In this document: piece after piece, positions 4,207-64,000 of the stretch
Position numbering within the stretch: the stretch's first letter is position 1
Layout of the letters: every line of letters begins with the position of its first letter
Origin: a virus
Virus record (IMG/VR): IMGVR_UViG_3300002835_007718
Span: 20,023-84,022 of that record
Strand: one strand, 5' to 3'
Length of the DNA stretch: 64,000 nt
Program-made: the position numbers and the translations under genes
The notes under the pieces: generated by a model
The model's database searches: none
Told to the model about the DNA's origin: nothing
Seen by the model: the letters and a program-made list of their open reading frames with translations, nothing else

Positions 4207-4207
4207 A

Positions 4208-6569: not shown

Positions 6570-6621
6570 AGATAATTGTAAAATTTTCTTTATGACACAC
6601 GATTCGTTTCCAAAACACCCA

Positions 6622-7245: not shown

Positions 7246-7715
7246 TCTTCTTTTTGAACTTGTTCTTCTTGTCTTCTTTTAGCTACGGAGGCTATTTTAT
7301 CATTTAACCCATAATTGTAATTATAAACTACTATCTGACTTACATTCGTGTAAATCAGAGTTCGGTATCCTTCTTGAAGTTTTTTCTTACGAATCTCACC
7401 CATATAGAATGCTTTAGATGCTTCATCAATTCGTAGTTTAGTTAAATCTAATTTACGAACACGGGTAGATTCCGCCATAATCTCTGGATAATCTGCTGCT
7501 AATTTTGAAAACAAAATTGGACTAACCTTATCAAGGTCTATACAATGAAGATATTCTTTAAATCTTGGTTGTAAAACAAACACGAAATACTCACTTTTTT
7601 CACCATTAACTTTAGTGTAGTTAATCTTAGCAACCATACCACGTTCCAATCGTTCTTTTTGTAAACGAGTTGGGTCGGTCATTTTATTTCGGTGTTGAGT
7701 TTTAAAATCAGGCAT
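7242..7715 (-). CDS. Hypothetical protein
   Basis: 157-aa ORF overlapping both neighbours. Confidence 0.65.
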   Translation of the reverse strand: MPDFKTQHRNKMTDPTRLQKERLERGMVAKINYTKVNGEKSEYFVFVLQPRFKEYLHCIDLDKVSPILFSKLAADYPEIMAESTRVRKLDLTKLRIDEASKAFYMGEIRKKKLQEGYRTLIYTNVSQIVVYNYNYGLNDKIASVAKRRQEEQVQKED

Positions 7716-8982
7716 CTAATTTCTTCAATTTAGGTAGTTGAAGTGTAACTTGTTGAGGTCCTTTTCCCGCGTTATGTTTTTGTAGAATGTCACCAAGTAA
7801 TTGAGTCATTTTTCCAATCGTAAAGTTATCCTTTACATACTTGCGGTTTTTACGAGACCTTTCTTCTGCTTTTTTATAATTATCGTAAATCCATTTTAAA
7901 TGGCCACCCGCGTCTGAATAATCTATATTAAACCAACTAGCTTCTTTCATAATCCAATCATTAGCTGATGATGGATGAACTTGTTTAACCTCACCACCAA
8001 TTAAGAAGTTGTAGTCATTATGTAGAAAATCCAAGTGACCACTCCAATTTGATGCAAGGATTGGTTTACCACTTACACACGCTTCTAATAGTGGTCTACC
8101 AAACCCCTCCCCCTTTGTAAACGATACGTGTGCTTTTACCTTTGGGTGATTATACAATGAGTTCATTTCCTCATCTGAAAGGTCACCATCGAGAATGTAA
8201 ATGTTTGGTATATTTTTAGAATCAATATTACTTTTAAGCATCTCAATTCGTTCTCGTATTTCATGAACATTTGTAATGCCAGGTGATACAAGTGATGTCT
8301 TGAGGATAAGTGCTGGCTTCTTTACTTTGTTTTTAAAAACTTCAAGAAATGTATAAACCAATCCACTAACATTTTTTCGGTCTTCACCAGAGTTTCCTTG
8401 TAACCAATGACCTACAAATAAAAATGCAAAATCTTCTTTGATGTTTGACATTACTTCGTTTACCGAAGGATGGACTGGCGTTTTGTTATCGTAGATATTT
8501 TCGTGGAATCCTTCAAACAAAACTTCAACAGGTTTGGTAAGTTTTAATTCACCAATTTTTTGTTTAGTCTTTTCATCAATTTTATCATAAATAACATTTA
8601 GTGTAGATGCAGAGTGATTCGATGAAACAATATTTAAATCCATACGATTACATCCTTCAATAAATGCAGGACTGGCTTGGTTGGTTTCAATTACAGCAGA
8701 AACCCCAATATTAAAATGACCAGCAGGTTGAAATTCATTTGGAATTGTAATCTGAATCCAAATATCCGGCTTTTGGTTTAGATTGGATATAAAACGAGAT
8801 GTTAAATCAGAATCGGATTCACTTAAAGCATTTTGAGGTGTATTACCCCATCGCTGTGGTAGGATACGAATATCCCACTCTTCATTTTTTACTTCGATAA
8901 GAGACCTAACAAAATCTCTTGAACGAGAACCATACCCACTTCTTGTTGCAATAGGGCAACTAACTACACATAACTTTTTCAT
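7708..8982 (-). CDS. Glycosyltransferase family 4 (GT-B)
   Basis: SGYGSRSRD and KGEGFGRPLLEA (E-x7-E motif). Confidence 0.9.
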   Translation of the reverse strand: MKKLCVVSCPIATRSGYGSRSRDFVRSLIEVKNEEWDIRILPQRWGNTPQNALSESDSDLTSRFISNLNQKPDIWIQITIPNEFQPAGHFNIGVSAVIETNQASPAFIEGCNRMDLNIVSSNHSASTLNVIYDKIDEKTKQKIGELKLTKPVEVLFEGFHENIYDNKTPVHPSVNEVMSNIKEDFAFLFVGHWLQGNSGEDRKNVSGLVYTFLEVFKNKVKKPALILKTSLVSPGITNVHEIRERIEMLKSNIDSKNIPNIYILDGDLSDEEMNSLYNHPKVKAHVSFTKGEGFGRPLLEACVSGKPILASNWSGHLDFLHNDYNFLIGGEVKQVHPSSANDWIMKEASWFNIDYSDAGGHLKWIYDNYKKAEERSRKNRKYVKDNFTIGKMTQLLGDILQKHNAGKGPQQVTLQLPKLKKLDA

Positions 8983-10394
8983 GCTTTATAAATATCAAAT
9001 CGTTTACGAGGAGCCCAATTTTGGAAACATCCTTCAATAGCTTCAACAAACTTTTCACCCATAGATTCAGATGCCATTTCTGCTTCTGATACAATCCATT
9101 CATGTCCTAATTGACCACACTTGATTAACGAACTTCTACCTTTTTTCAAAGCTTCGTCAAGTTGGTCTGCAATTTCAATATAATCGGCTCGGTCATCAAA
9201 AATATACGGAGTCGCAGGAGACCCTTGAAGAGAAAGATTGGATGGCCACACAGGAAAAGCCCAAACCCCCCAACTCAATGATTCATTAGATTTCCATTCT
9301 CTATGATTGTGAAGAGACCCGATTTTAATGTAATCCTCTTCAGTTAGTTGTTTACCATCTAATTCAAACCCACATTGGTCTTGAAGGCCACCGGTAACAT
9401 TCACAATAATTGGTGTGCCGGCTCGTAGAGCTTCACATGATGCAAGACCAAATCCTTCATTTGATGCAATGTTTAAAATTACATCGCCTGAATTGTAAAA
9501 TAAGTTAAGTTCCTCAACCGACATTATGGTATTAGTAAATTTATAATCACCAAATTTACCATTCCATTTAATTACTTCTGGAATATTTGTTCCGTTTTCA
9601 TCAATTGGTTGAGTATGCATAAACAACAACATTTTTTTATCGGGATGTCGTTTAGCAAATTCATTAAAAGCAATAACTAAATCACCTGGTTGTTTTCTAC
9701 GAATATTTCTATTGGCCCAAACTGCAATAAAATCGTATTTTTCTAAATCATGTTTCTTTTTAAACTCAATCAAGTTTAAATCGTCAGATGGTAGTGGTTT
9801 AAAATGTTTTGAAACTCCATGTGGAATGTATTTATAAGCCCAATCTTCTTTTGGCATTTTATAAGTTTCCAAAGTCCGTTTATTAATACCATAAGTTTGT
9901 TTTGAGATAGACATCAACAAATCACAACTTGCGTAAAACGGAGCGTTCCACATTGGGTCTGGCAAAGAGTCCCAAATGTTATAATACATAATAGGAACAA
10001 ACTGACGAACTTCTAATTCCATATCATACAACCACTTCCAAAAGCGAGGGTCGGTAAAGTGTAAGATTGCATCAGGCTTTTCAATATTGATTAATTCACG
10101 AAGAATGCCAGGATTCCCATATCCCGTATGAGCATAAATTTTAACACTAGCATCTTCTACGCCAGTTTCTTTAGCTACATCAGATGATACATCAAATATT
10201 TTTAGATGGTCTGGATGATTTAAAGCTGCCCCCAATTGAACCCAATCATATTTATGAACAGTAGATAATACTATTTCTTTAGATTGAGTTGCGATTCCAC
10301 TATGAAGTCGTAGGTCATCCGATAACAAAAGAATTTTCTTTTTCTTTGGTTTATTCGGGTCTATTTTTTTTAATTTAGGTAAGTTTACTTCCAT
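8979..10394 (-). CDS. Glycosyltransferase family 4 (GT-B)
   Basis: NRNIRRKQ and SNEGFGLASCEALRAGTP. Confidence 0.9.
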   Translation of the reverse strand: MEVNLPKLKKIDPNKPKKKKILLLSDDLRLHSGIATQSKEIVLSTVHKYDWVQLGAALNHPDHLKIFDVSSDVAKETGVEDASVKIYAHTGYGNPGILRELINIEKPDAILHFTDPRFWKWLYDMELEVRQFVPIMYYNIWDSLPDPMWNAPFYASCDLLMSISKQTYGINKRTLETYKMPKEDWAYKYIPHGVSKHFKPLPSDDLNLIEFKKKHDLEKYDFIAVWANRNIRRKQPGDLVIAFNEFAKRHPDKKMLLFMHTQPIDENGTNIPEVIKWNGKFGDYKFTNTIMSVEELNLFYNSGDVILNIASNEGFGLASCEALRAGTPIIVNVTGGLQDQCGFELDGKQLTEEDYIKIGSLHNHREWKSNESLSWGVWAFPVWPSNLSLQGSPATPYIFDDRADYIEIADQLDEALKKGRSSLIKCGQLGHEWIVSEAEMASESMGEKFVEAIEGCFQNWAPRKRFDIYKA

Positions 10395-10874: not shown

Positions 10875-11447
10875 CTATTGGAATTTTTTGTGTAATTGTT
10901 CTTTTTCAATAACATCTTTTAATCTTTTAATGTAATTTGGGTCTTCCGCATAACTTTTTGATAAATACTGAAAATAATCATCTTCATTTGTAATCCCACT
11001 TAAATATCTACATTGATAAAATGCGTAATCGTATACGGATTCTTCCCAACTTTCATAAAACGCATGATTGTGTTGAGTTCCTTTTGCGGTATTAACCCTT
11101 CGATATGCTTGTTTCATACCAAACAAATTATTATTTTTTTTAAAAATATTAGATGTCCAATGTCCAGTTTCAATTATAGATTGAGCCATTACAATGTGGG
11201 GAAATTTAACATTTAAATTATTTAATAAATTAACTAATTGCTCAGGTTCAAATGCTTTACGACCTTGATTAATTATAATTAATCGTTCCTCCGGACTTAA
11301 CTCACTAATAACCTTATGTCTAGCAATTTGTGTTGTGTATTGATAAGTTAGTATAGAAGTTATACCTAATACTATGAAAACTAATAGTATAAATTTATTA
11401 GTTACTTTTTCAAATTTCACTTGATTTTTTGAGTAAATATATAGCAT
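10875..11447 (-). CDS. GH73 glucosaminidase (peptidoglycan hydrolase) with an N-terminal membrane anchor
   Basis: AQSIIETG, NNLFGMK and YAEDPNY motifs; hydrophobic FILLVFIVLGITSIL. Confidence 0.85.
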   Translation of the reverse strand: MLYIYSKNQVKFEKVTNKFILLVFIVLGITSILTYQYTTQIARHKVISELSPEERLIIINQGRKAFEPEQLVNLLNNLNVKFPHIVMAQSIIETGHWTSNIFKKNNNLFGMKQAYRRVNTAKGTQHNHAFYESWEESVYDYAFYQCRYLSGITNEDDYFQYLSKSYAEDPNYIKRLKDVIEKEQLHKKFQ

Positions 11448-11460
11448 ATTAATTAATTAA

Positions 11461-12408
11461 TTATTCTTTAATTCGGTCTTTTTTAGAACACAATTCACTA
11501 TCTTTGAATGGACACCATTTACAATTTTTACTATTTTTACCAGCGATAGCTTGAAAATCCCCATCAACTTTATATGTCCCATCTTCATTAAAACCTTCAT
11601 CAATAAATCGATTAAATTCCTTTAAGATTTTTCTCATTGTAGGAACTCCATGGGCTGGAACAAACTCTTGAACTCGTTTTTGAGCAAACATAGCCTCTTC
11701 CCATAATTTTCGTTTTACAATAAAATAACGAACTTGAATCTTTTCAAGAGGATATCCATATTGGTCAGCGAAGAATTTTTTGTAAAGTATCAGTTGAGCA
11801 GTTTTGGTTTTGTCATCTTTTTGATACTTGTTCCAACCATTAGTAGATGTTTTTATATCCCAAATTTCAATTGTGCCATCTTCTATGATTTCAAATACTA
11901 AGTCAAGAAATCCCTTCATCATGATATGTTCATTGGATTCGGATGCTGGGTAGTAGATAGGTAATTCCACACCTAATAACCTCATCTTTCGAGTTGAAAA
12001 ATATTCAGAACGATTCTTTTTTAAAAAATCTAATATTTCTACACCATCGAAGTAAAATTCGTTCATCTCACTTTTAGAGGTGAACTTTATATTATAGATA
12101 GCCATTGACTTTTTATACTCCCGTGTCATGTTGTCTAACAACATTTGGTTGAGGTCCATGGTATCGGCTGATGCTGGACTTTCGCTATATATAACTTTTA
12201 ACCAATCTTGGATAACTTCATGCATTGCAGTTCCAAAGATTAGGTGAATAGATGGGTCATCGGTTTTGTTACCATCTACGTAGGTTAGTTTCCATTGTTT
12301 AGGGCAGTTAGCCCACATTGTATATTGAGAATAGGAAATTTTAACATCACCCTTTTTCTCTTCATATACGGGAAAGTTAAATATATTGGAAACTACTGAC
12401 TTTTTCAT
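11461..12408 (-). CDS. Cas4/AddB-like PD-(D/E)XK exonuclease
   Basis: ISYSQ...CPKQW, GTAMHE, GFLDL, WDIKT, QLILY and C-terminal CKWCPF...C (Fe-S cysteines). Confidence 0.85.
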   Translation of the reverse strand: MKKSVVSNIFNFPVYEEKKGDVKISYSQYTMWANCPKQWKLTYVDGNKTDDPSIHLIFGTAMHEVIQDWLKVIYSESPASADTMDLNQMLLDNMTREYKKSMAIYNIKFTSKSEMNEFYFDGVEILDFLKKNRSEYFSTRKMRLLGVELPIYYPASESNEHIMMKGFLDLVFEIIEDGTIEIWDIKTSTNGWNKYQKDDKTKTAQLILYKKFFADQYGYPLEKIQVRYFIVKRKLWEEAMFAQKRVQEFVPAHGVPTMRKILKEFNRFIDEGFNEDGTYKVDGDFQAIAGKNSKNCKWCPFKDSELCSKKDRIKE

Positions 12409-49643: not shown

Positions 49644-49862
49644 CTATTTTCTTGTTTTTGAACGAATTTTGGCAGCTTCTGTGTCATGAGCCTTCTTTTC
49701 ATCCGTTTTGAATTCTATAATTTTGTTAATATAAAACTTTCTAACCCATATTGGAAAGTTGTATACATCGGAAAAGGTAAATCCACCATTTCCATGATAT
49801 ATTAAATCAAAAATATGTGAGTGGAGATGCTTTCTGTAACTAGGACTTAGGCCAAAAAAAGG
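49644..49862 (-). CDS. Frameshift extension of the tail assembly chaperone (gp51/gpGT-like; no start codon)
   Basis: Frame reads PFFGLSPSYRKHLHSHIFDLIYHGNGGFTFSDVYNFPIWVRKFY...KTRK* and opens at a T7 run. Confidence 0.7.
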   Translation of the reverse strand, partial: PFFGLSPSYRKHLHSHIFDLIYHGNGGFTFSDVYNFPIWVRKFYINKIIEFKTDEKKAHDTEAAKIRSKTRK

Positions 49863-50712
49863 TCACATCCATAGGCAGTAGCATTTCCCTCCTTTCCCCA
49901 GTTTCCTCTGATACAAATTCCCATGTAAGGTCAATATCAGGAATAACTTCATTAATATATCCACGAAGAGCTTTAGAATCAACTGCGAATAATTCATTAT
50001 CAACAAAATGATTAATAGTTCGTTGTTCATGGTCACCATCTACCGAAAGAATCATCGCCTTTAAACGTGTTGTAAGTTCTCGTGAGGTTTCGTCTTTTAA
50101 CTTACGATTTGCCTTTTTTATCTCCTCAACCTCATGTTTAACTTTTCTATCTTTAGATTCAGTCATAGCCATGAATGTAATTTTACGATTTGATGTAGGT
50201 AATGTAAATTCAAATTCATTTTTATGAAGTTCTACTTGAGCAGACCCATCATATTCTTTATTTTCAAATTGAGTTAAATCAATAATATCTTTTTGTTTAT
50301 TATTTGAAAATGGGTCTTGAATTTCTACTTCATAGTCTTTACCATATCCGAGAATACGAGCTGCAATCATAATTGCGTTTTTATCACCACTTACTAAATC
50401 AACATATTTGATTGGTTGACCTTCGCCATTAGAGATGATAAGCGATTGAAACAATCGGTCAAGAACTGACCCATCTTTGATATATGATTGCGTTGTAAGA
50501 ATATCTTCTTCTTTTGCAGTCATATATTTCATTTCAATTTTACCTGTCGAAAGGGGATTGTCTTTTGAGTAAACAAGCCCTTTCGATGGTAAGTCAATAA
50601 TTTCAGTTGGAAATTTATAATCACGAACTTGTTGAACTTCGTGTTCATTTCTCAACTGAGAAACGATGTCTTTATTTGACATCCCTTTATAGTCATCTTG
50701 TAAATCTACCAT
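49840..50712 (-). CDS. Tail/baseplate hub assembly chaperone (gp26-like)
   Basis: IDLPSKG, KYMTAKEEDIL, RILGYG and C-terminal FFWP. Confidence 0.75.
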   Translation of the reverse strand: MVDLQDDYKGMSNKDIVSQLRNEHEVQQVRDYKFPTEIIDLPSKGLVYSKDNPLSTGKIEMKYMTAKEEDILTTQSYIKDGSVLDRLFQSLIISNGEGQPIKYVDLVSGDKNAIMIAARILGYGKDYEVEIQDPFSNNKQKDIIDLTQFENKEYDGSAQVELHKNEFEFTLPTSNRKITFMAMTESKDRKVKHEVEEIKKANRKLKDETSRELTTRLKAMILSVDGDHEQRTINHFVDNELFAVDSKALRGYINEVIPDIDLTWEFVSEETGERREMLLPMDVTFFWPKS

Positions 50713-51087: not shown

Positions 51088-51576
51088 TTAGTATTGTAAG
51101 ATAGCGTAATCGTAAGTCAATGTTAATTCAACGGTTGCAAGGTCTTCACCTGCATAATCCATATCAGAAAATTTAGCTGTCTGAATAAATGCGCCTTTTA
51201 ATGTCCATTCTTCTACTTTATCACCAACAGGACCCAAACTATTAAATGTGATATCTTTTTTATAGAAATCAGAATATCCATCACGGCCAGTTACCGATTC
51301 GTGGTGTAAACGAACCCACTCCATAACAGCTTGTGCAGCTGAAGGAACTACGGCATCGTAAAGGGTTATTGCAACATCCGACCATTCAGAACGACCCTTA
51401 ACATATCTACGAGTGTTAATGTGGTCAATGGTAACTTTACCATTAACTATTTCGGGTCTAGCTGCTGTTTTTATCAAGTATGCGGGAATACCTTCAATAT
51501 ACATAATGAACCTATTGGACATTTTAGGTTCAAAATTGGTGAACATGATTTCATTTGGGTCAAGTAATTGTGCCAT
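51088..51576 (-). CDS. Tail tube protein (gp19-like)
   Basis: FEPK..NRF, EW.LKGAF and LTLTYDYA; follows the sheath gene. Confidence 0.85.
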   Translation of the reverse strand: MAQLLDPNEIMFTNFEPKMSNRFIMYIEGIPAYLIKTAARPEIVNGKVTIDHINTRRYVKGRSEWSDVAITLYDAVVPSAAQAVMEWVRLHHESVTGRDGYSDFYKKDITFNSLGPVGDKVEEWTLKGAFIQTAKFSDMDYAGEDLATVELTLTYDYAILQY

Positions 51577-51622: not shown

Positions 51623-53956
51623 TTATGCTCCAGGGAACGTTGCGCCCGTTGGAAGAATGTTAAAGTCAAGAACAATGAATTCTGCTGTCTTTGATGGTTG
51701 TAGGAAAATTTCACCTACCATAGTGTTTCTATCAATTACATCAGGAGTGTTATTAGTATCATCCATTACAACACGGAAAGCAAATAAACCATTTCTTTGT
51801 TGGATTGATTCCAAGTATGGGTTTACAATTGACAAGAATCGGTTTCTTGTTGCAGCCGTATTATTTTCAAATACCAAATATCTTGTAGAAGATGCAATAA
51901 ACTTCTTAACAGCAATTAACAATCTACGAACATTGATTCTATCCAATGCGGATGGTCTAGCTTGTAAGGTTTTTTGACCGAATACAGTAGCACCTTGGCC
52001 AGGGAATGTAGCGATTGGGTTTACACGGCCTTCGTAAAGTGTGTCTCTCTCAGCGTGAGTCAAACGAGATTTAACTTCAATAACATTTGTTAATCCACCT
52101 CTATTCAAACCTGCGGGAGCAAACCATTCAGCAGCAACCGAATCATTGAAAGCAATCACGCCAGGTAAAACAACACTTGGCGGAACCCATACTGGCTTGT
52201 TCTTATCAGTATCAAGGATTTTAACCCATGGGTGGTAAGTAGCAACATAGTTAGAGTCAAACGAAGTTAATGCGTTTACAACCGTAGTGTTTGAATCTTG
52301 ATATGCGCCTGCATCCATTACAAAGAAACAATCTTGTCTATCTTCACACATATCTTTAGCGTATATAGTTACTGAAGAGTGTAGTCTATGTAAAACGCCT
52401 GGAAGAACAACCATATTAATATCAAACTCATCAGGATTTGAAACTGCGTTGATAGCTTTTCTTAAAGCGATAGTACCAGTAGCCGTAGCAGATGAACAAT
52501 CCAACCCTTGAGTGTTTCCAGCAACAATACTTGTTCCTGTAAGGATTACCCGATTTGGCTCCCAACCATCAAAACCACCTTGAAGTGGAACCATAAATTT
52601 CTTAGCATCTACATTAGATGTTAATGTAATTGGAGAACCATTTGAGTGACAAGTAGCCAAATCAAAGTCAGAACCAACAATTTCCGTGTTAGCGTCTGGA
52701 GTTGGCATTAAGAAGTTTAGGTTATCAGTTGAACTGAAATCATAATCATATCCTAAGAATACTCGTGTGTTTACCACACCACCTAATGATTGAGATACAA
52801 CATAGGTTGGAGTTGGTAAATTATAACCACTATGAAGTGGTGATGTTAGAGCAGCAAATCCAAAAGGAACTAATGATGAGTCAATAGCACCATTTGTTAC
52901 ATCACTTGTCATTTCAACACGAATGTGAGCCGAATTGTTGGGATAGTCTCCCTCAAATACTAATTTACCATTTTCATCTACATTAACATATCTATCACCA
53001 ATAACTCTTGCGATATAATTTGGAGAATTTGGGTCAAGGTTAAGACCTGTAAACTCTTCAACAATATTTGGTCGTGTGTCTGCGTCTTGAATACTTGTTC
53101 CAAAGATTGAGTTTGGAATTTTTGCAGTATCTACTCTACGAACTTGTAAAGTAAATGTTCCGTATTCTGAACCAGGAACTTCAGATGCTGGTTTAACATC
53201 ACGAATACCAATCTTAAATTCATAGTTTGTAGCGGTGCCATGTGAAAGAGTATAAACTTTAAATAAGTTTGTAGCTACACCACCAACTTTTTGTGAAAGG
53301 ATATATGGAGTTGATGCTTCAGAATATGCTTTAGTATAGTCGGTATCAATTTTAGATAGTGATACCTTAACATTCTCACCTGTAGCAAATGATGCTGATT
53401 GGAATGTTGAAAAGTTCAACATAGTATATGCAACCTTTGAAGATTTAGGAGCATATCCATAAATTTTAGTAAAGTAATTTTGTGAACTTGGATTCATAGA
53501 AGCCGAAGTTGCAGTTGAACTTACTGAACTACCAGTTAAGGTCAATAAGAACAAAGAAGCACTTGCTGCTGTATCTACTATTGAATCATCAAAATCACCA
53601 CCAAAAGTAGCAGTAGTTGGGTGTAATAAAGCACCTACTCGTTCACCTGCAGATGATGAAATTACTAAAGCAACTGGCTTTGCTGTATATCCATCATTAC
53701 CCAATACTCTAACGATTGTAGCAGTGCCAGCATCTTCTAAATAAGCTTGTGCTGTATATGGAAGGTATGAGTCTTCGGTTAAACCTCCGAAGCGTTGTGT
53801 AAATTCATTAAAAGATTCTACTTGTGTTGGAACAAAAGCAGGACCTTTGATAGTTTGCCCAATAAGAGCGGCACCAATTTCAGCAATACCAGCAGGTAAA
53901 AACGAAAGGTCTTTTTCTCGTGTAAATACGCCTGGACTAACAATTCTTTCAGCCAT
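51623..53956 (-). CDS. Contractile tail sheath protein (gp18-like)
   Basis: SPGVFTREKDLS, WFAPAGLNRG, GQKTL, RINVRRL and AEFI. Confidence 0.95.
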   Translation of the reverse strand: MAERIVSPGVFTREKDLSFLPAGIAEIGAALIGQTIKGPAFVPTQVESFNEFTQRFGGLTEDSYLPYTAQAYLEDAGTATIVRVLGNDGYTAKPVALVISSSAGERVGALLHPTTATFGGDFDDSIVDTAASASLFLLTLTGSSVSSTATSASMNPSSQNYFTKIYGYAPKSSKVAYTMLNFSTFQSASFATGENVKVSLSKIDTDYTKAYSEASTPYILSQKVGGVATNLFKVYTLSHGTATNYEFKIGIRDVKPASEVPGSEYGTFTLQVRRVDTAKIPNSIFGTSIQDADTRPNIVEEFTGLNLDPNSPNYIARVIGDRYVNVDENGKLVFEGDYPNNSAHIRVEMTSDVTNGAIDSSLVPFGFAALTSPLHSGYNLPTPTYVVSQSLGGVVNTRVFLGYDYDFSSTDNLNFLMPTPDANTEIVGSDFDLATCHSNGSPITLTSNVDAKKFMVPLQGGFDGWEPNRVILTGTSIVAGNTQGLDCSSATATGTIALRKAINAVSNPDEFDINMVVLPGVLHRLHSSVTIYAKDMCEDRQDCFFVMDAGAYQDSNTTVVNALTSFDSNYVATYHPWVKILDTDKNKPVWVPPSVVLPGVIAFNDSVAAEWFAPAGLNRGGLTNVIEVKSRLTHAERDTLYEGRVNPIATFPGQGATVFGQKTLQARPSALDRINVRRLLIAVKKFIASSTRYLVFENNTAATRNRFLSIVNPYLESIQQRNGLFAFRVVMDDTNNTPDVIDRNTMVGEIFLQPSKTAEFIVLDFNILPTGATFPGA

Positions 53957-55720: not shown

Positions 55721-56884
55721 TTATCCTATGTAAATTGGTCTTGGAACTCTAGCAAGAGTTAATTCAATAAATTCAGCTTCATCTTTTTTAGCTTCCATTT
55801 GTGCTCTACGAGATGTTGCTTCTAACATTTCTTTTAATTCAGTCAATAAAATTTCTCTTTCAGCAGCAGCTTCACTACGAAGGTCAGCCCCATCCAAAGT
55901 TACATCAGAGCCTGGAATCGGGATTGATGAAAATTTTGAACGAACCGCCCCTAGCATTTCTTTAGCTAATGCTAATGAATATCTAGCAATCCATTGTCTT
56001 CCAGCAGAATTAATTGCAGTATATCTTAATCGGTTAAACGGCACATTTGAAAAGTCGCTTACTACATTTAGTTTTGCGATTGGTGAGTTTGTTTCACTTT
56101 CCAATGTGTAGTCAAAGTAAACTTTTGTGCCTTCATCAGATAGTGCCGGAATTGGAAATAATCTTACACGAGTTCCATCGATATGGAATCCATATGATGA
56201 TTTACGAATAAGGTCATTAAATTCAATTGCCTGTAAACGAAGTAGGTCATCAAACATTGGTTGCATCATAAATGATACGCCAGGTGAATATGCTCCCCAA
56301 CCAAATGTATTTAACATTTGTTGTGAACCCATACCTGTTCCTACAAATGGGTCAAAGTATCTAATGACAGCCGGTGGTTGAAAATGATAAAATCTACGAA
56401 TCGTAACACCATCTAAAACCGAACCACTTTCTAAAGTCACAACACTACCATCAGCAAGGTCATAAATTTGTTTACCACTAACCATTTCAAATGAGCCGGT
56501 GTAAACCGTCACACGACCACCACTTAATGCTTCAGTTCCATAATCTTTAGCAATGTTAACAACGCCTGATAAATTAGCGTTAAGTTGTGTATCTCTTAAA
56601 TCCAAGTTTAAATCGGAACCTTGAAGAGATAACATATTTTCTTTTGCTCTATATTGATTTACTTGTGATGAATACTCATTTGCTGATTCTTCAAAACAAG
56701 TAAAAAAATTGATATCTTGTAATTCAATATCTACAATTGGATATCCCAATCGTTTAGCGCACCAATCCGCAACTTTTGGAGCATCCGACCTGAATTGTGA
56801 ATCAGAATCAAAAAATCCGAAAGGTGTTGATGAACCACTTGTAAATGAACCTGACCCCGGCCATATTGGAATATTAATTGCCAT
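55721..56884 (-). CDS. Neck protein (gp13-like)
   Basis: RLGYPIVDIEL and WIARYSLALAKEMLGAVRSKF..IP...VTLDG. Confidence 0.8.
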   Translation of the reverse strand: MAINIPIWPGSGSFTSGSSTPFGFFDSDSQFRSDAPKVADWCAKRLGYPIVDIELQDINFFTCFEESANEYSSQVNQYRAKENMLSLQGSDLNLDLRDTQLNANLSGVVNIAKDYGTEALSGGRVTVYTGSFEMVSGKQIYDLADGSVVTLESGSVLDGVTIRRFYHFQPPAVIRYFDPFVGTGMGSQQMLNTFGWGAYSPGVSFMMQPMFDDLLRLQAIEFNDLIRKSSYGFHIDGTRVRLFPIPALSDEGTKVYFDYTLESETNSPIAKLNVVSDFSNVPFNRLRYTAINSAGRQWIARYSLALAKEMLGAVRSKFSSIPIPGSDVTLDGADLRSEAAAEREILLTELKEMLEATSRRAQMEAKKDEAEFIELTLARVPRPIYIG

Positions 56885-56928: not shown

Positions 56929-58605
56929 TTATCTTTCCAAGTTTTTCATGAAAGACACAATAATATATCTCTTACCTTTAGTAACCGCTCTAGCCCCATG
57001 TTTATGGGTTATGTTTCCAGGATGAAGAGTTGCATAACCAATTGAGTTTTTTACCAACTTTTTTTGCCGTTTAAACCAAGTTCCACCCCCTTCATATTCA
57101 TTAAAGTCTGAAAGTTGTATTAAACAAGTAATATCAGATGAATCATGGTGAATACCTAAATGTCCTTGAGCGTCTGGCGTATACTTTGCAAGAAAGTTTT
57201 CACTACTCATATTATCCCAACCCTTTCCATTAAGAGCCCACATATGAATTGAGAGTGGCATTACAAATTGTTTTAAAATTTCCAAATAGGTATCGTGTAA
57301 TCCAATAGTTTCTAATACCATATCAGTAGTTGGATAATTTTCATGCCTGTTAGTAGTCCAACACTCACAATGTTCAGCTTCTTCACGAATCATTTTACAA
57401 AATTCTTCAGTAAATAATGGAAATGAAAAACAATTGTCAAATGGCTCGTCCGTGATTAAGTCCCACTCTTTTGTTCTTGCGGAATATGTCACAAACCTAT
57501 TAATCCAAGCTTGTGGATTTTCATTGTAGGTGTATAACTCTGGATGTAATTTTCCATTGTTTTTAATAACATCTACCCATTTACCTATGCGGTTTTCCCA
57601 ACTTTCATTTTTTGCAAAATTATATGCGGTCTCTTGATTTAATTGTTGTAAAGATTTGTTATTATACAAATATTTAAATTCTTCAAAAATTTTACTTTTT
57701 AAAATTTCCAAATCAGATGGAGTTGATATTAATGCAGATTTTCCTAATAACAAATTACCCAAATTACCTGTATCAGTTGATACAATTTTTACATTACCAT
57801 ACATCATTTCTAACGCTGTAATACAAAATGTTTCAATATATTTTGATGGATACACCCAATATTCTGAAGATTTAATTTGAGTATAAAGTTCTTTTGGAGA
57901 TAAGTTATCTACAAAATGAACTCCATCATAAAATCCTTTATAGTTTTCATACCATTCCAATCCATATGGTGGCGTGGCTACCCAAAGAGTTGCTTCAGGA
58001 ATCATGTCTTTGATTCTTGGCCAGATTTCTAATAATTCCTTTAGCCCTCTATCTGCTGCTGATGTATATATAAATTTATTTTTATATTTTGGAACATCTA
58101 TATCTTGCCAATCATATGGGTCGATTGCGTTTTCGATTACAATGATTTTATTTTTAATTTCAGGATAAGTGTTTTCTAATAATTTTTTTTGATATTCAGA
58201 TACAGCAATTACAGATGTTAATCTATTGTCTAATAAATAATTTCTACCATTATTTTCTAAAACTTCACCATTATACCATGGATAAAATTCCTCATTGTGA
58301 ATCCAAAAAAATGACTTATCATATGATATATTTAAAGATTCTAAAACTTTTATGTAGTGTATATAAGCAGTTGCTATTACAATATCAAAATGTTGGTTTT
58401 CTTGTAGTTCTCTTATATTTGTATATACAACCCCATCGCATACATCTGAAATAACTTCACCACTAACAACAACATTATATCCCTCTGCGAATAAATAATC
58501 CGCAAGTTTTATAGTTGAATATTCAGTTCCACCTGCTCCTAACTCTAACCATGTTTTTTTATTAAATGGTAATTTTTGATAACCTGTGTAAATTAATACT
58601 TTCAT
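56929..58605 (-). CDS. Bifunctional GT4 glycosyltransferase fused to a PLOD/LH3-like collagen lysyl hydroxylase
   Basis: N-domain: GAGGTE, YTSAADRGL, YPS..IETFCITALE. C-domain (about 56929-57552): FPLFTEEFC, ENYPTTD, NFLAKY, HHDSS, YEGGG.WF, LHPGNITHKHG, RYIIVSF. Confidence 0.85.
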   Translation of the reverse strand: MKVLIYTGYQKLPFNKKTWLELGAGGTEYSTIKLADYLFAEGYNVVVSGEVISDVCDGVVYTNIRELQENQHFDIVIATAYIHYIKVLESLNISYDKSFFWIHNEEFYPWYNGEVLENNGRNYLLDNRLTSVIAVSEYQKKLLENTYPEIKNKIIVIENAIDPYDWQDIDVPKYKNKFIYTSAADRGLKELLEIWPRIKDMIPEATLWVATPPYGLEWYENYKGFYDGVHFVDNLSPKELYTQIKSSEYWVYPSKYIETFCITALEMMYGNVKIVSTDTGNLGNLLLGKSALISTPSDLEILKSKIFEEFKYLYNNKSLQQLNQETAYNFAKNESWENRIGKWVDVIKNNGKLHPELYTYNENPQAWINRFVTYSARTKEWDLITDEPFDNCFSFPLFTEEFCKMIREEAEHCECWTTNRHENYPTTDMVLETIGLHDTYLEILKQFVMPLSIHMWALNGKGWDNMSSENFLAKYTPDAQGHLGIHHDSSDITCLIQLSDFNEYEGGGTWFKRQKKLVKNSIGYATLHPGNITHKHGARAVTKGKRYIIVSFMKNLER

Positions 58606-59897
58606 TTTCCCTCTACAATATAATTTAAAACTTGTTCTTTTTCGTAATATCGTGACCTATCCATCCAATTTTGAAGTTTATGTGCCTGATTTTTAGAATA
58701 ATCCCAACACCAATCTTCTTTTCCTAATTCAAGAATTTTCTGATGAATAAATGGGTCATAATAATCTTTGATTAATCTTGCTCTTCGATTTATGTCTGTT
58801 GAGTTATTATCAACCGTAGAATTATAATTGTTGTATTGAACATATAACATTTTTTTTAAATGAATCATACGAGTTTCAAGAAATGTTTTTACAATTAATT
58901 CATAATCATCGGCTACTGAAATATTTCTACTATGTCCTCTTATTTTGTGATATGTATCTCGATTCCATACTCTACAATGATTTGGCATTCCTATATTAAA
59001 CCTAATTGTTTTTGGATTAATATCAGGATAATGATGAGTTAACCAAGTATGACCATCAAACTTTTCCCAAGTATGACCTGCGTATGCCCAATCAAATGGA
59101 TTTTCAGGATGACCATACCAATCATTACCAATACGACCATATTGTCGTGGGGTTCCATCTTCATAGACCTCGGTTACATCGGTATAAATAAATCCAGCGT
59201 CTGGATATTGTTTGCTTGCATTTAAAACATCTTCTAAACAAGTTGAAATAAGAACATCATCATGGTCTAATTCAAATAACCACTCACCACTACATAACAT
59301 AGCAGCTCTATGCTTTACCTCGCCAACATTACCTGCTGAAGTTGGTGATATTCTATAAACATTTACTCTATAATCTTGACTTGCAATAGTTTTTAGGTAT
59401 TCAAATGTTTTATAATCACCCTCTGGCGAATCGTCAATAACAACCCATTCCCAATTTGGGTATGTTTGATTTTTTAAAGATTCGTATGTTCTAAATATGC
59501 GTTCATTTGTTTTGTATGTTGGCGTAAATACTGAAAGAATTGGTGTTTTTTTATTACCATATACTTCTTTTTGAGATTTACACGCCCAAAATGTAGATTG
59601 ACATACCACATCATTTGCAAGTATATTATCAGGTATAATTTTATCATAAACGCGTAATTTACTACTAACCATAGTATGATGCATCATTTCGGTAACTTCA
59701 ACAAAATGATTTCCTATTGTTATAATAATATCTGGCCGATGAATAGCTAAATGGGCTTTAAATTCAGCTGAACTTTCATATGAATGTAAGATTACATTTT
59801 CAAATAATCCTTCTTCCCAATATATGTCAGATTGAATTTCAATTTTGCCAAATCTATCCCAACCATAAATAAGAGCGCTTGGTAAACTTGTTTTCAT
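58602..59897 (-). CDS. GT2 glycosyltransferase with an N-terminal extension
   Basis: SVFTPTY, QTYPNWEWVVIDD, ELDHDD and ADDYEL. Confidence 0.88.
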   Translation of the reverse strand: MKTSLPSALIYGWDRFGKIEIQSDIYWEEGLFENVILHSYESSAEFKAHLAIHRPDIIITIGNHFVEVTEMMHHTMVSSKLRVYDKIIPDNILANDVVCQSTFWACKSQKEVYGNKKTPILSVFTPTYKTNERIFRTYESLKNQTYPNWEWVVIDDSPEGDYKTFEYLKTIASQDYRVNVYRISPTSAGNVGEVKHRAAMLCSGEWLFELDHDDVLISTCLEDVLNASKQYPDAGFIYTDVTEVYEDGTPRQYGRIGNDWYGHPENPFDWAYAGHTWEKFDGHTWLTHHYPDINPKTIRFNIGMPNHCRVWNRDTYHKIRGHSRNISVADDYELIVKTFLETRMIHLKKMLYVQYNNYNSTVDNNSTDINRRARLIKDYYDPFIHQKILELGKEDWCWDYSKNQAHKLQNWMDRSRYYEKEQVLNYIVEGK

Positions 59898-59900
59898 AAA

Positions 59901-60500
59901 TTACTTATATGGTTCACCACCTACCCAAAGAACAAAAGATTTACGAGTGCCTCGTGTTACAGGCGTTACTCTATGTAAGTAAAAGGATGGAAATAGTATA
60001 GCAGCACCTTTGTGTCTATGTGCTATCATTTCTTTACCAATATTAAATTCTAAATTACCACCATCATAATCTTCTGGCGATGATAATTGAACCGTAACTG
60101 AAATTTTTCTTTGATTTTGAATACCAATTCCACAATCCATGTGCCAATCGTAATGACCACCGCCCTCATAATATTCTGTATATTGAATTTGTTCATTCAT
60201 TGTAGACAAATCAAATTTCCACATTAAATCATTTGCTTCCACAATCATATTGTGAAGTTTTGAATAAACCCATTCCCATTCTTGGGTTTGAGGACACCAT
60301 TTTATTTGAGATTTACGATAATTAGATATTTTAGATTTATCGTCTTGACCAACAGCAGCTACTTGAAATGGTAATTCAAAAGTCATTTCTTCGATTTGTT
60401 GTAATTCATCAGATGTAAATCCATCTTTAAACCAATAGTAATCTGTGTAGTTTACATCGCTACGATGTGAGTTTCTATCAAATGTAAATTTATTTTGCAT
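59901..60500 (-). CDS. 2OG-Fe(II) oxygenase (prolyl-hydroxylase/PKHD-type)
   Basis: YDWHMD, RKIS, YDGG.L and FPS..LHRVTPVT.GTRKS. Confidence 0.9.
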   Translation of the reverse strand: MQNKFTFDRNSHRSDVNYTDYYWFKDGFTSDELQQIEEMTFELPFQVAAVGQDDKSKISNYRKSQIKWCPQTQEWEWVYSKLHNMIVEANDLMWKFDLSTMNEQIQYTEYYEGGGHYDWHMDCGIGIQNQRKISVTVQLSSPEDYDGGNLEFNIGKEMIAHRHKGAAILFPSFYLHRVTPVTRGTRKSFVLWVGGEPYK

Positions 60501-60535
60501 AACAATTTATTTTGTTATAAATATAGAACTAAATC

Positions 60536-63500
60536 TTAATAAGACCCACTAATGTAAGTTTCTATAATCCAAATTTGGTCACCAATTTGCCATCCGTGTT
60601 TTTTAAATGTAAGTTTGTTTAAAGAATCATTCCATTCAAAAAACCCACCAGCAAGAATGTTACCTTTTTCACCTTTTAAACCACCATCACCACCTATGCC
60701 GGTATCACCATTTGTTCCAAAATTACCTTTTGAACCCAAATTACCAGCAGCACCTTGAGAACCAATAGCTCCTTGAGCACCTTGAACTCCCTTGTTACCA
60801 ACATTACCTTGAGCGCCTTGCGGACCTGCTGGTTCGGGTGTATCGCCAGTTATACCTTTAATACCTTTATTACCCGTTGCACCTTGAGAACCTTGGTCAC
60901 CTTGAGCGCCAGTTGCACCTTTAGCTCCTGGTATGTCCTCAGAAGGACCTTGAGAACCTTGAATACCTTGAGAACCTTGGTCACCTTGAACACCTTTAAT
61001 ACCCTTGTCACCCACATTACCTTGAGAACCTATAACGCCAACTGCACCTTGAGCACCTTGAATACCTTTTATACCTTTATCACCAGCAGCTCCTTGAGCT
61101 GCTTCAAATGGGTGTTGACCACCTTGAGCGCCTTGGATTCCTTTTGCACCTTGAAGTCCCAAATCACCAGCAGCACCTTGAGAACCTTGAGCACCTTGAG
61201 AACCTTGGTCACCTTGAGAACCTTGAATCCCTTTATTACCAGCAGAACCTTGAGAACCTTGAGCACCTTGAGAACCTTGGTCACCTTGAGAACCTTGAAT
61301 TCCTTTATTGCCAATATTACCTTGAGCGCCTTGTGGACCAGCTGATTCAGGCGTATCGCCAGTTATACCTTTAATACCTTTATTACCTGCTGCACCTTGA
61401 GAACCTTGGTCACCTTGAGCACCTACTCCGCCTTGAGCACCTTGAAGTCCCAAATCACCAGCAGCACCTTGAGAACCTTGAGCACCTTGAGAACCTTGGT
61501 CACCTTGAGAACCTTGAATCCCTTTATTACCAGCAGAACCTTGAGAACCTTGAGCACCTTGAGAACCTTGGTCACCTTGAGAACCTTGAACTCCTTTATT
61601 ACCGGCTGCACCTTGAGCGCCTTGCGGGCCTGCTGGTTCAGGTGTTTCACCGGTTATACCTTTAATACCTTTATTACCTGCCGCACCTTGAGAACCTTGG
61701 TCACCTTGAGCACCTTGGATTCCCTTAGCCCCTAAATTACCAGCAGAACCTTGAGAACCTTGAGCACCTTGAGAACCTTGGTCACCTTGAGAACCTTGAA
61801 CTCCTTTATTGCCGGCTGCACCTTGAGAACCTTGAGCACCTTGAGAACCTTGGTCACCTTGAGAACCTTGAACTCCTTTATTGCCGGCTGCGCCTTGAGC
61901 ACCTTGGTCACCTTGAGCACCTACTGCACCTTGAGCACCTTGAAGGCCTAAATTACCAGCAGCACCTTGAGAACCTTGAGCACCTTGAGAACCTTGGTCA
62001 CCTTGAACTCCTTGAACTCCTTTATTACCAGCAGAACCTTGAGAGCCTTGAGCACCTTGAGAACCTTGGTCACCTTGAGCACCTTGAACTCCTTTATTGC
62101 CGGCTGCGCCTTGAGCGCCTTGCGGACCTGCTGGTTCAGGTGTTTCACCGGTTATACCTTTAATACCTTTATTACCTGCTGCACCTTGAGCGCCTGTAGC
62201 ACCTTGAGCACCTTGAGGTCCTTGAGGACCAGTATTACCAGCAGCACCTTGAGAGCCTTGAGCTCCAATAGGACCTAATCCACCCGAACGACCTATTTCG
62301 TCAGTATGTTGATACCAAGTCCCACCGCCTGATTCAGATGGTTTTTTCCAATATACTCGTAAACCTTCTCCGCCAGCATATTCTTGAGTTCTTACTAAAA
62401 ATGAGTATGAAACACCAGCGGTTAATGAAATTGTACCTGTGGTTGTTCCTAATGCAGGGGTTCCTCTACCACCATAAAATGAGGTTACAAGAGTTCCATT
62501 AACAAACAAATCTACTGAATCATCAGACTCGGCTGTAAATGTATATGTTCCTGTTTCAGTTGGTATAAATGTTCCGAATGCCCTAACTGCAAAATAATCT
62601 CCACTATTTGGAATACTAACTCCAGCGCTAGTCAATGTTGCTGATGATACCCAATTTAATATTGTAGTAGCAGCAACAAAGCCTTGTGAATGTAAAGTTG
62701 AATTTGAATATGCTGTATCAAAGAATTTACCAAAATCAGTAGCATCTGTTGGATAAACTGAATATTGAGAAGTAGAACCATTTCCACCATGAGTAGACCA
62801 CACTTCAAAATTTAATGCGGCAGACCCAAATACACTACCTTTATCACCCGTAGCACCTTTAGGACCTTGAGGGCCGATAGCACCAACTGAACCTTGAGCA
62901 CCTTGAGCGCCGGTATTGCCCGCTGCGCCTACAGACCCTTGAGCACCTTGACCGCCTTGAACACCTTGAGCGCCCGTATTACCAGCAGCGCCTTGATTAC
63001 CTTGAGGGCCTGTAGCCCCACCAGCACCTTGAGAACCTTGAGCGCCCGTATTACCAGCTGCACCTTGAGAACCTTGAGGGCCCGTAGCCCCACCAGCGCC
63101 TTGAGAACCTTGAGCGCCTGTATTACCAGCAGCACCTTGATTACCTTGAGGGCCAATAGCACCAACTGAACCTTGAGCACCTTGAGCGCCTGTATTACCA
63201 GCAGCACCTTGAAATCCTTGAAATCCAACTGGACCTTGATTACCTTGAGCGCCTGTATTACCAGCAGCACCTTGATTACCTTGAGGGCCTGTAGCCCCAC
63301 CAGCACCTTGAGAACCTTGAGCGCCTGTATTACCTGCTGCACCTTGATTACCTTGAGGACCTGTTCCTTCAGGCGCATCGCCAGTTACACCTTTAATACC
63401 TTTATTACCTGCTGCGCCGACAGACCCTTGAGCACCTTGAGCACCTTGATTACCTTGAGCGCCTGTATTACCAACAGCACCTTGATTACCTTGAGGGCCT

Positions 63501-64000
63501 GTAGCCCCACCAGCACCTTGAGAACCTTGAGCGCCTGTATTACCTGCTGCACCTTGATTACCTTGAGGACCTGTTCCTTCAGGCGCATCGCCAGTTACAC
63601 CTTTAATACCTTTATTACCTGCTGCGCCGACAGACCCTTGAGCACCTTGAGCACCTTGATTACCTTGAGCGCCTGTATTACCAACAGCACCTTGATTACC
63701 TTGAGGGCCTGTAGCCCCACCAGCACCTTGATTACCTTGAGGGCCTGTAGCCCCACCAGCACCTTGAGAACCTTGAGCGCCAGTAGCCCCACCAGCACCT
63801 TGAGAACCTTGAGCGCCCGTATTACCCGCGGCACCTTGATTACCTTGAGGGCCAATAGCACCAACTGAACCTTGAGCACCTTGAGCGCCTGTATTACCAG
63901 CAGCACCTTGATTACCTTGAAATCCAACTGGACCTTGATTACCTTGAGCGCCTGTATTACCAGCAGCACCTTGATTACCTTGAGGGCCTGTAGCCCCACC
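60536..64000 (-). CDS. Collagen-like fibre protein with a central PA14 domain (partial; start lies beyond the window)
   Basis: The frame is open from 64000 to the stop at 60536 (at least 1154 aa). Gly-X-Y repeats flank the PA14-like GDYFAVR..GTYTFTAESDDSVDLFVNG..QEYAGGEGLRVYW. The track's 62803 start is an internal GTG. Confidence 0.9.
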   Translation of the reverse strand, partial: GGATGPQGNQGAAGNTGAQGNQGPVGFQGNQGAAGNTGAQGAQGSVGAIGPQGNQGAAGNTGAQGSQGAGGATGAQGSQGAGGATGPQGNQGAGGATGPQGNQGAVGNTGAQGNQGAQGAQGSVGAAGNKGIKGVTGDAPEGTGPQGNQGAAGNTGAQGSQGAGGATGPQGNQGAVGNTGAQGNQGAQGAQGSVGAAGNKGIKGVTGDAPEGTGPQGNQGAAGNTGAQGSQGAGGATGPQGNQGAAGNTGAQGNQGPVGFQGFQGAAGNTGAQGAQGSVGAIGPQGNQGAAGNTGAQGSQGAGGATGPQGSQGAAGNTGAQGSQGAGGATGPQGNQGAAGNTGAQGVQGGQGAQGSVGAAGNTGAQGAQGSVGAIGPQGPKGATGDKGSVFGSAALNFEVWSTHGGNGSTSQYSVYPTDATDFGKFFDTAYSNSTLHSQGFVAATTILNWVSSATLTSAGVSIPNSGDYFAVRAFGTFIPTETGTYTFTAESDDSVDLFVNGTLVTSFYGGRGTPALGTTTGTISLTAGVSYSFLVRTQEYAGGEGLRVYWKKPSESGGGTWYQHTDEIGRSGGLGPIGAQGSQGAAGNTGPQGPQGAQGATGAQGAAGNKGIKGITGETPEPAGPQGAQGAAGNKGVQGAQGDQGSQGAQGSQGSAGNKGVQGVQGDQGSQGAQGSQGAAGNLGLQGAQGAVGAQGDQGAQGAAGNKGVQGSQGDQGSQGAQGSQGAAGNKGVQGSQGDQGSQGAQGSQGSAGNLGAKGIQGAQGDQGSQGAAGNKGIKGITGETPEPAGPQGAQGAAGNKGVQGSQGDQGSQGAQGSQGSAGNKGIQGSQGDQGSQGAQGSQGAAGDLGLQGAQGGVGAQGDQGSQGAAGNKGIKGITGDTPESAGPQGAQGNIGNKGIQGSQGDQGSQGAQGSQGSAGNKGIQGSQGDQGSQGAQGSQGAAGDLGLQGAKGIQGAQGGQHPFEAAQGAAGDKGIKGIQGAQGAVGVIGSQGNVGDKGIKGVQGDQGSQGIQGSQGPSEDIPGAKGATGAQGDQGSQGATGNKGIKGITGDTPEPAGPQGAQGNVGNKGVQGAQGAIGSQGAAGNLGSKGNFGTNGDTGIGGDGGLKGEKGNILAGGFFEWNDSLNKLTFKKHGWQIGDQIWIIETYISGSY
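60660..62290 (-). repeat. Gly-X-Y collagen repeat block 2 (Lys-rich in the Y position)
   Basis: GAQ/GSQ/GDQ/GNK triplets with recurring GNKGIKGITG[ED]TPE[PS]A units. Confidence 0.9.
62840..64000 (-). repeat. Gly-X-Y collagen repeat block 1, including a near-exact 210-bp tandem duplication
   Basis: ctgttccttcaggcgcatcg occurs at both 63361 and 63571. Confidence 0.9.

Follow-up and report, generated by a model that had tools for sequence, protein, structure and literature searches.

Hydroxylysine-linked glycosylation of collagen has, to our knowledge, been demonstrated only in animals and mimivirus. The Acanthamoeba polyphaga mimivirus protein L230 is a bifunctional collagen lysyl hydroxylase and hydroxylysine glucosyltransferase (its lysyl hydroxylase domain is found in PDB 6ax6 and 6ax7), and the fused glycosyltransferases of both L230 and human LH3 reportedly act on hydroxylysine or its glycan. 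In L230, the Fe ligands are H825, D827 and H877 and the 2-oxoglutarate (2OG) ligands Y814 and R887, all of which were shown to be essential; L873 is a dimer contact that inserts into an aromatic pocket, and the dimer is needed for activity on long collagen chains (Guo et al. 2018, PMC5802723). Most prokaryotic collagens are neither hydroxylated nor glycosylated, and BclA-type collagen-like proteins are glycosylated (2022 review, PMC8968730). Other bacterial dioxygenase families have been predicted to modify collagen-like proteins in work that does not treat PLOD-type phage enzymes (Iyer et al. 2010, PMC2938197), and our full-text literature search tied lysyl hydroxylase only to animals, mimivirus and other giant viruses and found no bacteriophage paper. 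Here we describe four consecutive minus-strand genes at the contig end of a 64,000-nucleotide stretch of viral DNA (hereafter the window; positions 20,023 to 84,022 of IMG/VR record IMGVR_UViG_3300002835_007718) that encode a collagen-like fibre, a stand-alone 2OG-Fe(II) oxygenase, a family 2 glycosyltransferase (GT2) and a fusion of a family 4 glycosyltransferase (GT4) with a lysyl hydroxylase (LH) domain. We consider it likely that the phage uses this cassette to mature its own collagen-like fibre.

Sequence, fold and catalytic residues all place the C-terminal domain of the fusion protein in the PLOD/L230 lysyl hydroxylase family. Its best sequence match in phmmer was human LH3 (PLOD3; complex with ColGalT1, PDB 6fxk and 8zgc) at E = 7e-30, with query residues 351-553 aligned to chain residues 501-713 (200 residues), a match that takes in the region N-terminal to the jelly-roll. 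L230 followed at E = 5e-23, and no other PDB family fell below E = 0.01, the next standing at 0.7. An earlier note made from the DNA letters had matched the domain motif for motif to animal lysyl hydroxylases, and all seven PLOD motifs indeed lie in residues 352-558 (nt 56932-57552) and aligned with the same motifs of human LH3. In the AlphaFold2 model of the fusion protein (pLDDT 89), the LH part matched L230 (6ax6) in Foldseek with a TM score of 0.85 and an rmsd of 2.5 Å over 205 columns at 30% identity, and matched LH3 at 6.6e-19. Phage H486, D488, H536, R546 and Y475 align with L230 H825, D827, H877, R887 and Y814, and these Fe and 2OG ligands are invariant across 25 homologues, down to 43% identity. 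The comparison with LH3 and L230 by sequence and structure thus places the domain in their family and not among non-PLOD oxygenases, and the domain is predicted to hydroxylate Lys in X-Lys-Gly of collagen chains.

Like L230, the phage protein is virus-encoded and joins an N-terminal glycosyltransferase to a C-terminal LH domain within a single chain; the two LH domains are homologues that share the same Fe and 2OG ligands, and mimivirus also encodes X-Lys-Gly collagen-like proteins. Unlike L230, it belongs to a tailed phage with a bacterial rather than an amoebal host, its fused glycosyltransferase is of the GT-B/GT4 type, its cassette adds a separate GT2 and a prolyl-hydroxylase-like oxygenase, and its dimer Leu is Ile. 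The likeness to the LH3 system would extend to the order of reactions, with hydroxylation of Y-position Lys followed by one sugar from an inverting and one from a retaining glycosyltransferase, the phage part of which is predicted. LH3 has two GT-A-type domains, one catalytic and one accessory, ahead of LH and acts in the endoplasmic reticulum, whereas the phage protein, with its single GT-B domain, would act in the cytoplasm of the bacterium. Compared with the known viral bifunctional LH/glycosyltransferase, what appears to be new is the bacteriophage setting, the non-homologous GT-B transferase, the modular companions and a fibre whose Lys content tracks the gene.

The candidate substrate is encoded by the first gene of the cassette. 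Its open reading frame (ORF) is open at the 5' end, the contig stopping inside the gene so that the N-terminus is missing, which bears out the description of the fibre as at least 1154 aa long; PHROG tail-fibre families match it at up to 1e-218. Across 300 in-frame Gly-X-Y triplets in 10 runs, Lys was found 33 times at Y and never at X (GNK 15, GIK 8, GDK 3, GAK 3 and four others once each), where more than 20 X-Lys-Gly sites had been claimed. The chance of such a split, if X and Y were equally likely, is about 1e-10. Pro shows the opposite placement, with 23 residues at X and 0 at Y.

Among 38 related viral loci, each one with sufficient upstream DNA shows one or two co-oriented collagen ORFs and then the oxygenase, GT2, GT4-LH and the adaptor. 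Four relatives are near-complete (87-97% complete, 167-181 kb), and nearly all of their collagen repeats lie in the two or three ORFs that directly precede the cassette. Loci were also fetched via the adjoining adaptor gene and via the oxygenase, and 39 distinct loci were classified. The cassette is modular, and most of these loci carry collagen-oxygenase-GT2-GT4LH. The oxygenase is the sole enzyme that accompanies the fibre gene in 39 of the 39 classified loci; GT4-LH is missing from eight (L061, L064, L071, L072, L074, L123, L124 and L179) and GT2 from three that have LH (L058, L107 and L174). The ORF listing and translations confirmed the four genes of the window as consecutive and co-oriented, and Pfam confirmed their types; as a unit the set is present here, but relatives that lack GT2 or GT4-LH mean that the four genes are not obligate partners.

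The Lys content of the fibre follows the presence of LH. Counting the cassette-proximal fibre of each locus, Lys occupied 7.7-36% of Y positions in all 31 LH-plus loci (1619 at Y vs 24 at X; 7539 triplets) and 0-2.8% in all eight LH-minus loci (17 at Y vs 14 at X; 1137 triplets), the latter ratio being the relevant control for the Lys bias of the window's fibre. The two ranges do not overlap (Mann-Whitney p = 1.7e-5, uncorrected for phylogeny), and both the amount of Lys and its preference for Y over X vanish without LH. Because an adaptor-protein tree left LH-plus and LH-minus loci unresolved, the oxygenase tree was used instead. On this tree LH presence needs four changes (three to four in bootstrap trees, none of which gives one), and Lys content follows every change of LH state.

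The association extends to more distant phages. A search with the LH domain covered 1.84 billion cluster representatives and gave 2351 matches at E<=1e-3, 621 at <=1e-10 and 87 at <=1e-30. LH is nearly always C-terminal across this family, and the architectures sampled were GT25-LH, GT4-LH, GT4-GT25-LH, PLOD-GT-LH, GT25-PLOD-GT-LH, DUF6445-LH, GT25-LH followed by TPR repeats, and LH alone. GT25 is the family of the animal collagen galactosyltransferase (ColGalT); sister phage proteins carry it, and the window's own protein does not. Since LH is recurrently fused to glycosyltransferases, including two families that animals use on collagen, these architectures support a hydroxylate-then-glycosylate logic. 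Scans of viral contigs that used one GT25-LH protein or one stand-alone LH protein as query gave no match. A wider scan gave 454 viral relatives; its profile was built from GT25-LH proteins, 35-40% identical to the query protein of the scan. A collagen ORF was present within 10 kb in 61 of the 78 loci read, mostly directly upstream and co-oriented. In the 48 distinct collagen ORFs of this set, Lys stands at Y in 3603 cases and at X in 40, and Pro stands at Y in 248 of 11719 triplets (2.1%) vs 2756 at X. Homologues therefore co-occur with collagen genes in most of the related and more distant phage loci. Together, family membership of the LH domain, its linkage to collagen genes and the Lys content that tracks it are comparative evidence that supports the proposal of the earlier note, namely that this bacteriophage would make hydroxylysine-linked glyco-collagen fibres. 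As putative roles of such fibres, the note named fibre stability, shielding of the virion and adhesion.

The glycosyltransferase half of the fusion protein was compared in the same way. Foldseek matched it to PimA, MshA, BshA and WaaG, with TM scores of 0.6-0.7 to GT4 structures, and the glutamates of its EX7E motif (E258 and E266) are invariant in 25 homologues. A word-indexed search gave 296 homologues of the fusion protein; a single ORF holds the glycosyltransferase N-terminal and LH C-terminal, and GT4+LH is kept in the best 120 of the 296. In a longer homologue form of ~790 aa, a further domain, GT25, sits between GT4 and LH. The PLOD-type GT-A domain PF25342, which occurs in other members of the LH family, was not detected in the fusion protein by Pfam, where only GT1/GT4 families were found. 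The likeness to the bifunctional LH3 and L230 thus holds for the fusion of a glycosyltransferase N-terminal to LH but not for the transferase itself, which is GT-B/GT4 and non-homologous to LH3 GT-A or PF25342.

From these results we propose the following course of fibre maturation. During infection and before the triple helix winds, the PLOD-type domain would hydroxylate the Y-position Lys of Gly-X-Lys-Gly with Fe(II), 2-oxoglutarate and O2, a step suggested by homology, by the intact catalytic residues and by the co-variation of Lys with the gene. The fused GT4 would then put a sugar on the new hydroxyl, as the GT4-LH fusion suggests by analogy with L230 and LH3; if the enzyme is retaining, the transferred sugar would be in alpha linkage. 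GT2 and the prolyl-hydroxylase-like oxygenase may, more speculatively, add further steps, either glycan extension or X-position Pro hydroxylation and O-glycosylation of hydroxyproline (Hyp) or Thr. The product would be a glycosylated fibre with a PA14 sugar-binding module, encoded between the head and tail modules.

The first 120 aa of GT2 have no family match; its PDB sequence matches are chondroitin synthase and a beta-1,3-GlcNAc transferase, and its translation shows the acidic motifs DD and DHDD. In LH-minus phages GT2 would be independent of hydroxylysine, since those phages keep it, and the enzyme may extend the glycan or may act on Thr or Hyp by analogy with BclA-type proteins. The oxygenase has an HxD...H motif and Arg (H120, D122, H176 and R186) that are invariant in 12 orthologues. 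By sequence it is closest to PiuC/PKHD hydroxylases (PiuC, 5e-10), and its AlphaFold2 model (pLDDT 75) gave as top folds Pseudomonas PPHD (4iw3), Dictyostelium PhyA, PHD2 and PBCV-1 vCPH (5c5t), with matches of 2.5e-9 to 2.6e-7 and prolyl 4-hydroxylase (P4H)/PHD enzymes the best; PiuC likewise ranks among the leading fold matches. It shares its fold and HxD...H...R ligands with the P4H/PHD and PiuC/PKHD groups, and differs from the P4H group in that identity is only 15-23% and the phage fibre has no Pro at the Y position, the classical collagen P4H site. A role as classical collagen P4H was rejected on the latter ground (Y-position Pro in 0/300 fibre triplets), and the likeness to P4H holds for fold and ligands but not for that site; X-position Pro is our best guess for its substrate, held weakly. 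A 40%-identical oxygenase orthologue lies directly upstream of a secreted collagen-like gene in the Chromatiales bacterium ex Bugula neritina (L192:9008-11136, contig C162), a neighbour with GAPGAKGDA repeats in which Pro and Lys both stand at Y; the same genome has a GT4-LH homologue on another contig, and an oxygenase orthologue occurs in 1 of 85 genomes of that bacterium's order. The oxygenase is thus collagen-linked in two settings, since the phage loci and the Chromatiales bacterium both pair it with a collagen gene.

A rather unlikely alternative is that Lys is hydroxylated but the sugars go elsewhere, with GT2 and possibly GT4 acting on Thr or Ser, as in BclA, or on hydroxyproline made by the oxygenase, while hydroxylysine contributes to hydration, stability or cross-linking and bears no glycan. 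For it speak the share of Thr at Y positions, 10-37% in every fibre variant, the presence of both oxygenase and GT2 in LH-minus relatives, the resemblance of the oxygenase model to prolyl 4-hydroxylases and the glycosylation of BclA-type collagen-like proteins (PMC8968730). Against it, GT4 is covalently fused to LH in the phage and such fusions recur family-wide, the fused glycosyltransferases of L230 and LH3 reportedly work on hydroxylysine or its glycan, and phages that have no GT2 keep GT4-LH together with Lys-rich fibres. Bacillus BclA and ordinary phage collagen-like tail fibres share with the fibre of the window long Gly-X-Y repeats on a microbial or viral surface and frequent Thr at Y; they have no lysyl hydroxylase and carry their glycans on Thr.

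Several observations weigh against a maturation system dedicated to the fibre. The fused transferase is not homologous to those of LH3 and L230, so its acceptor is a guess, and the L230 dimer residues are only partly conserved, L873 being replaced by an invariant Ile532, one pocket position being Trp and the other pocket positions having no clear alignment. In the co-variation, strongly supported branches alone force just one LH-state change, at most four to five independent pairs are available, too few for a significant sign test, and the LH-minus records are 3-16% complete fragments, in whose genomes LH may lie elsewhere. Fibre and enzymes may also have been swapped as one block, producing the association through linkage. 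Of five LH records with no nearby collagen gene, three have one elsewhere on the record and two (39-44% complete) have none. Finally, full-length bacterial GT4-LH homologues (44-51% identical), found in Granulosicoccaceae, a Chromatiales symbiont of Bugula, Rhodobacteraceae and Aliishimia, have unrelated housekeeping genes around them and lack a collagen gene within 10 kb, and these neighbourhoods are the main evidence against an obligatory LH-collagen coupling. The expected linkage of LH homologues to collagen genes thus holds for most of the phage loci and fails for the adjacent genes of the bacterial homologues.

Such stand-alone bacterial homologues, the phage loci where LH has no collagen gene within 10 kb and the single forced LH-state change would also suit a distinctly unlikely alternative, linkage without function, in which GT4-LH hydroxylates and glycosylates a different target, such as some other protein of the virion or host or a small molecule that contains lysine, and travels in a mobile fibre block. 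Against this, Lys at Y tracks LH perfectly in the 39 loci and its preference for Y over X is gone without LH, and the only characterised members of the LH domain family act on collagen X-Lys-Gly. In addition, bacterial genomes with a GT4-LH homologue encode collagen-like proteins elsewhere: of the 158 triplets in a 785-aa frame of Aliishimia, 64 have Lys at Y and one has it at X, and the Chromatiales genome encodes the secreted protein with GAPGAKGDA repeats described above. This co-occurrence at genome level is weak evidence, because collagen matches were also found in 4 of 14 control genomes. That the glycosyltransferases are host-takeover or 'moron' genes remodelling the host envelope, with the LH-like domain a decayed or non-catalytic appendage, is most improbable even though their families fall in the PHROG class 'moron, auxiliary metabolic gene and host takeover', GT2 in a GtrB-like O-antigen conversion family, and a second sugar gene cluster lies in the window, since the invariant Fe and 2OG ligands, the position of the genes within the structural module, where fibre and neck genes flank them in all relatives, and the way Lys co-varies with LH all argue against it.

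It is possible, although doubtful, that marine T4-like phages run an animal-style collagen maturation in the bacterial cytoplasm, with Lys hydroxylation, O-glycosylation and a second hydroxylase as modular enzymes gained and lost with fibre Lys, and that the phage and bacterial LH family is the source pool of animal PLOD and L230 and not the reverse. If phages do modify collagen in this manner, such chemistry would be common throughout the ocean virome (the 454 viral relatives and 2351 cluster representatives above), the origin of the PLOD enzymes would become a testable phylogenetic question, and host recognition and particle stability would have a new variable in the glycosylation of phage fibres. 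Mimivirus enzymes have reportedly been borrowed for hydroxylated, glycosylated recombinant collagen in bacteria, and compact enzymes evolved for the bacterial cytoplasm could serve the same production.

The source is an uncultured marine T4-like myovirus with a genome of roughly 170-180 kb. The window is the final part of an 84,022-bp contig (CheckV completeness 43%), all long ORFs of the window are on the minus strand, and PHROG identified a T4-like replication set (family B DNA polymerase, UvsX, DnaB-like helicase and ribonucleotide reductase) and a tail module of contractile type (Table 1). Within the cassette the genes are separated by 35 nt, 3 nt and a 4-nt overlap; promoter-like sites are not in excess between them, and no terminator-like site was found there. 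The order adaptor, sheath, tube and hub is common to all related loci. Upstream of the collagen ORFs, the near-complete relatives encode the major head protein, PhoH and several large fibre-like proteins in a block, among them a gp9/gp10-like connector, which puts the collagens in a block of fibre genes that separates the head module from the neck-tail module. By tail sheath, Microcystis phage Mel-JY01 (56%) is the nearest isolate; the cassette is absent from its equivalent site, where capsid, two hypothetical genes, PhoH and neck genes are found instead. Against 50,697 phage records, megablast of the cassette gave no match, and tblastn against phage records gave partial, weak matches only.

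Table 1. Features of the 64,000-nucleotide window, with the evidence for each assignment
Feature	Position (nt)	Strand	Evidence or remark
Collagen-like virion fibre gene, 1154 aa partial	60536..64000	-	Pfam Collagen (PF01391) 8.8e-118, 12 stretches
Gly-X-Y segment 1, aa 2-390	62831-63997	-	triplet reading
PA14 domain, aa 466-556 of partial ORF	62333..62605	-	Pfam PF07691 3.2e-11
Gly-X-Y segment 2, aa 570-1115	60656-62293	-	triplet reading
Fibre C-terminal non-collagen domain, ~40 aa, ends SGSY	60539..60655	-	conserved in relatives
2OG-Fe(II) oxygenase ('OXY'), 199 aa	59901..60500	-	PF13640 (2OG-FeII_Oxy_3) 8.8e-15
GT2 (inverting GT-A), 431 aa	58602..59897	-	PF00535 5e-15
GT2 catalytic domain, aa 122-252	59142-59534	-	PF00535
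GT4-LH fusion protein, 558 aa	56929-58605	-	Pfam GT1/GT4 + PF25238
GT4 (GT-B fold, retaining-type) domain, aa 1-345	57571..58605	-	Pfam Glyco_trans_1_4, Glycos_transf_1, Glyco_transf_4
PLOD-type LH domain, aa 351-558	56932..57555	-	phmmer, Foldseek; stop codon 56929-56931
Head-tail adaptor-like gene	55721..56884	-	PHROG; directly downstream of cassette
Tail sheath	51623-53956	-	PHROG; beyond adaptor-like gene
Tail tube	51088-51576	-	PHROG
Baseplate hub	49840-50712	-	PHROG
Two GT4-like glycosyltransferases	7708-8982, 8979-10394	-	second sugar cluster
UDP-glucose/GDP-mannose dehydrogenase family protein	5745-6734	-	second sugar cluster
D-2-hydroxyacid dehydrogenase	1677-2594	-	second sugar cluster

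Apart from its triplets, the fibre has a ~180-aa non-collagen globular insert (aa 391-569, nt 62294-62830) in which the PA14 domain sits. This carbohydrate-binding type of module suggests that the fibre itself may bind sugar. The C-terminal pattern GGYFEW...L.FK..GW.SGD...E.Y.SGS[YF] recurs in the cassette-proximal fibres of related loci, and the domain may have a trimerisation or registration role. In relatives with two fibre paralogues (L002, L004, L034 and L107), both end in short conserved SGS[YF] domains; the upstream paralogue is Lys-poor in L002 (4/207 triplets) and not in L004 (73/340). Other residues of the triplets also differ among fibres. His occupies 10-20% of X positions in several LH-less phage fibres (L060, L061, L064, L074 and L179) and on average about 1% in LH-plus fibres (0-4% per locus), and the pooled LH-minus loci show aromatic enrichment at X (Phe 5.1%, Tyr 3.2%). 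In LH-plus fibres (e.g., L008 612-4874 and L034 3803-6565) Arg is found at X only, with <=19 residues per fibre and none at Y, so that the basic residues are segregated, Lys at Y and Arg at X. GC content is 42-49% in the collagen gene (62000-64000) vs about 33% elsewhere, and the long shadow ORFs in other frames and on the plus strand at 62000-64000 are by-products of Gly-codon repeats, not genes.

Among the GT25-LH proteins, a 463-aa two-domain form is encoded at 6176-7564 of a contig from a Flavobacteriaceae metagenome-assembled genome (L046, GC 29%) and is the pairing closest to animal ColGalT plus PLOD. No collagen ORF was found in the 9.7 kb of this contig, which is probably phage DNA binned into the assembled genome. 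Elsewhere in the window, the second sugar-related cluster spans 1677-10394 on the minus strand (Table 1); the cluster may provide or consume nucleotide sugars in fibre glycosylation, or may have nothing to do with it. A 190-aa protein with a glucosaminidase (PF01832) domain (10875-11447, minus strand), probably a lysin, adjoins a PD-(D/E)XK nuclease (11461-12408).

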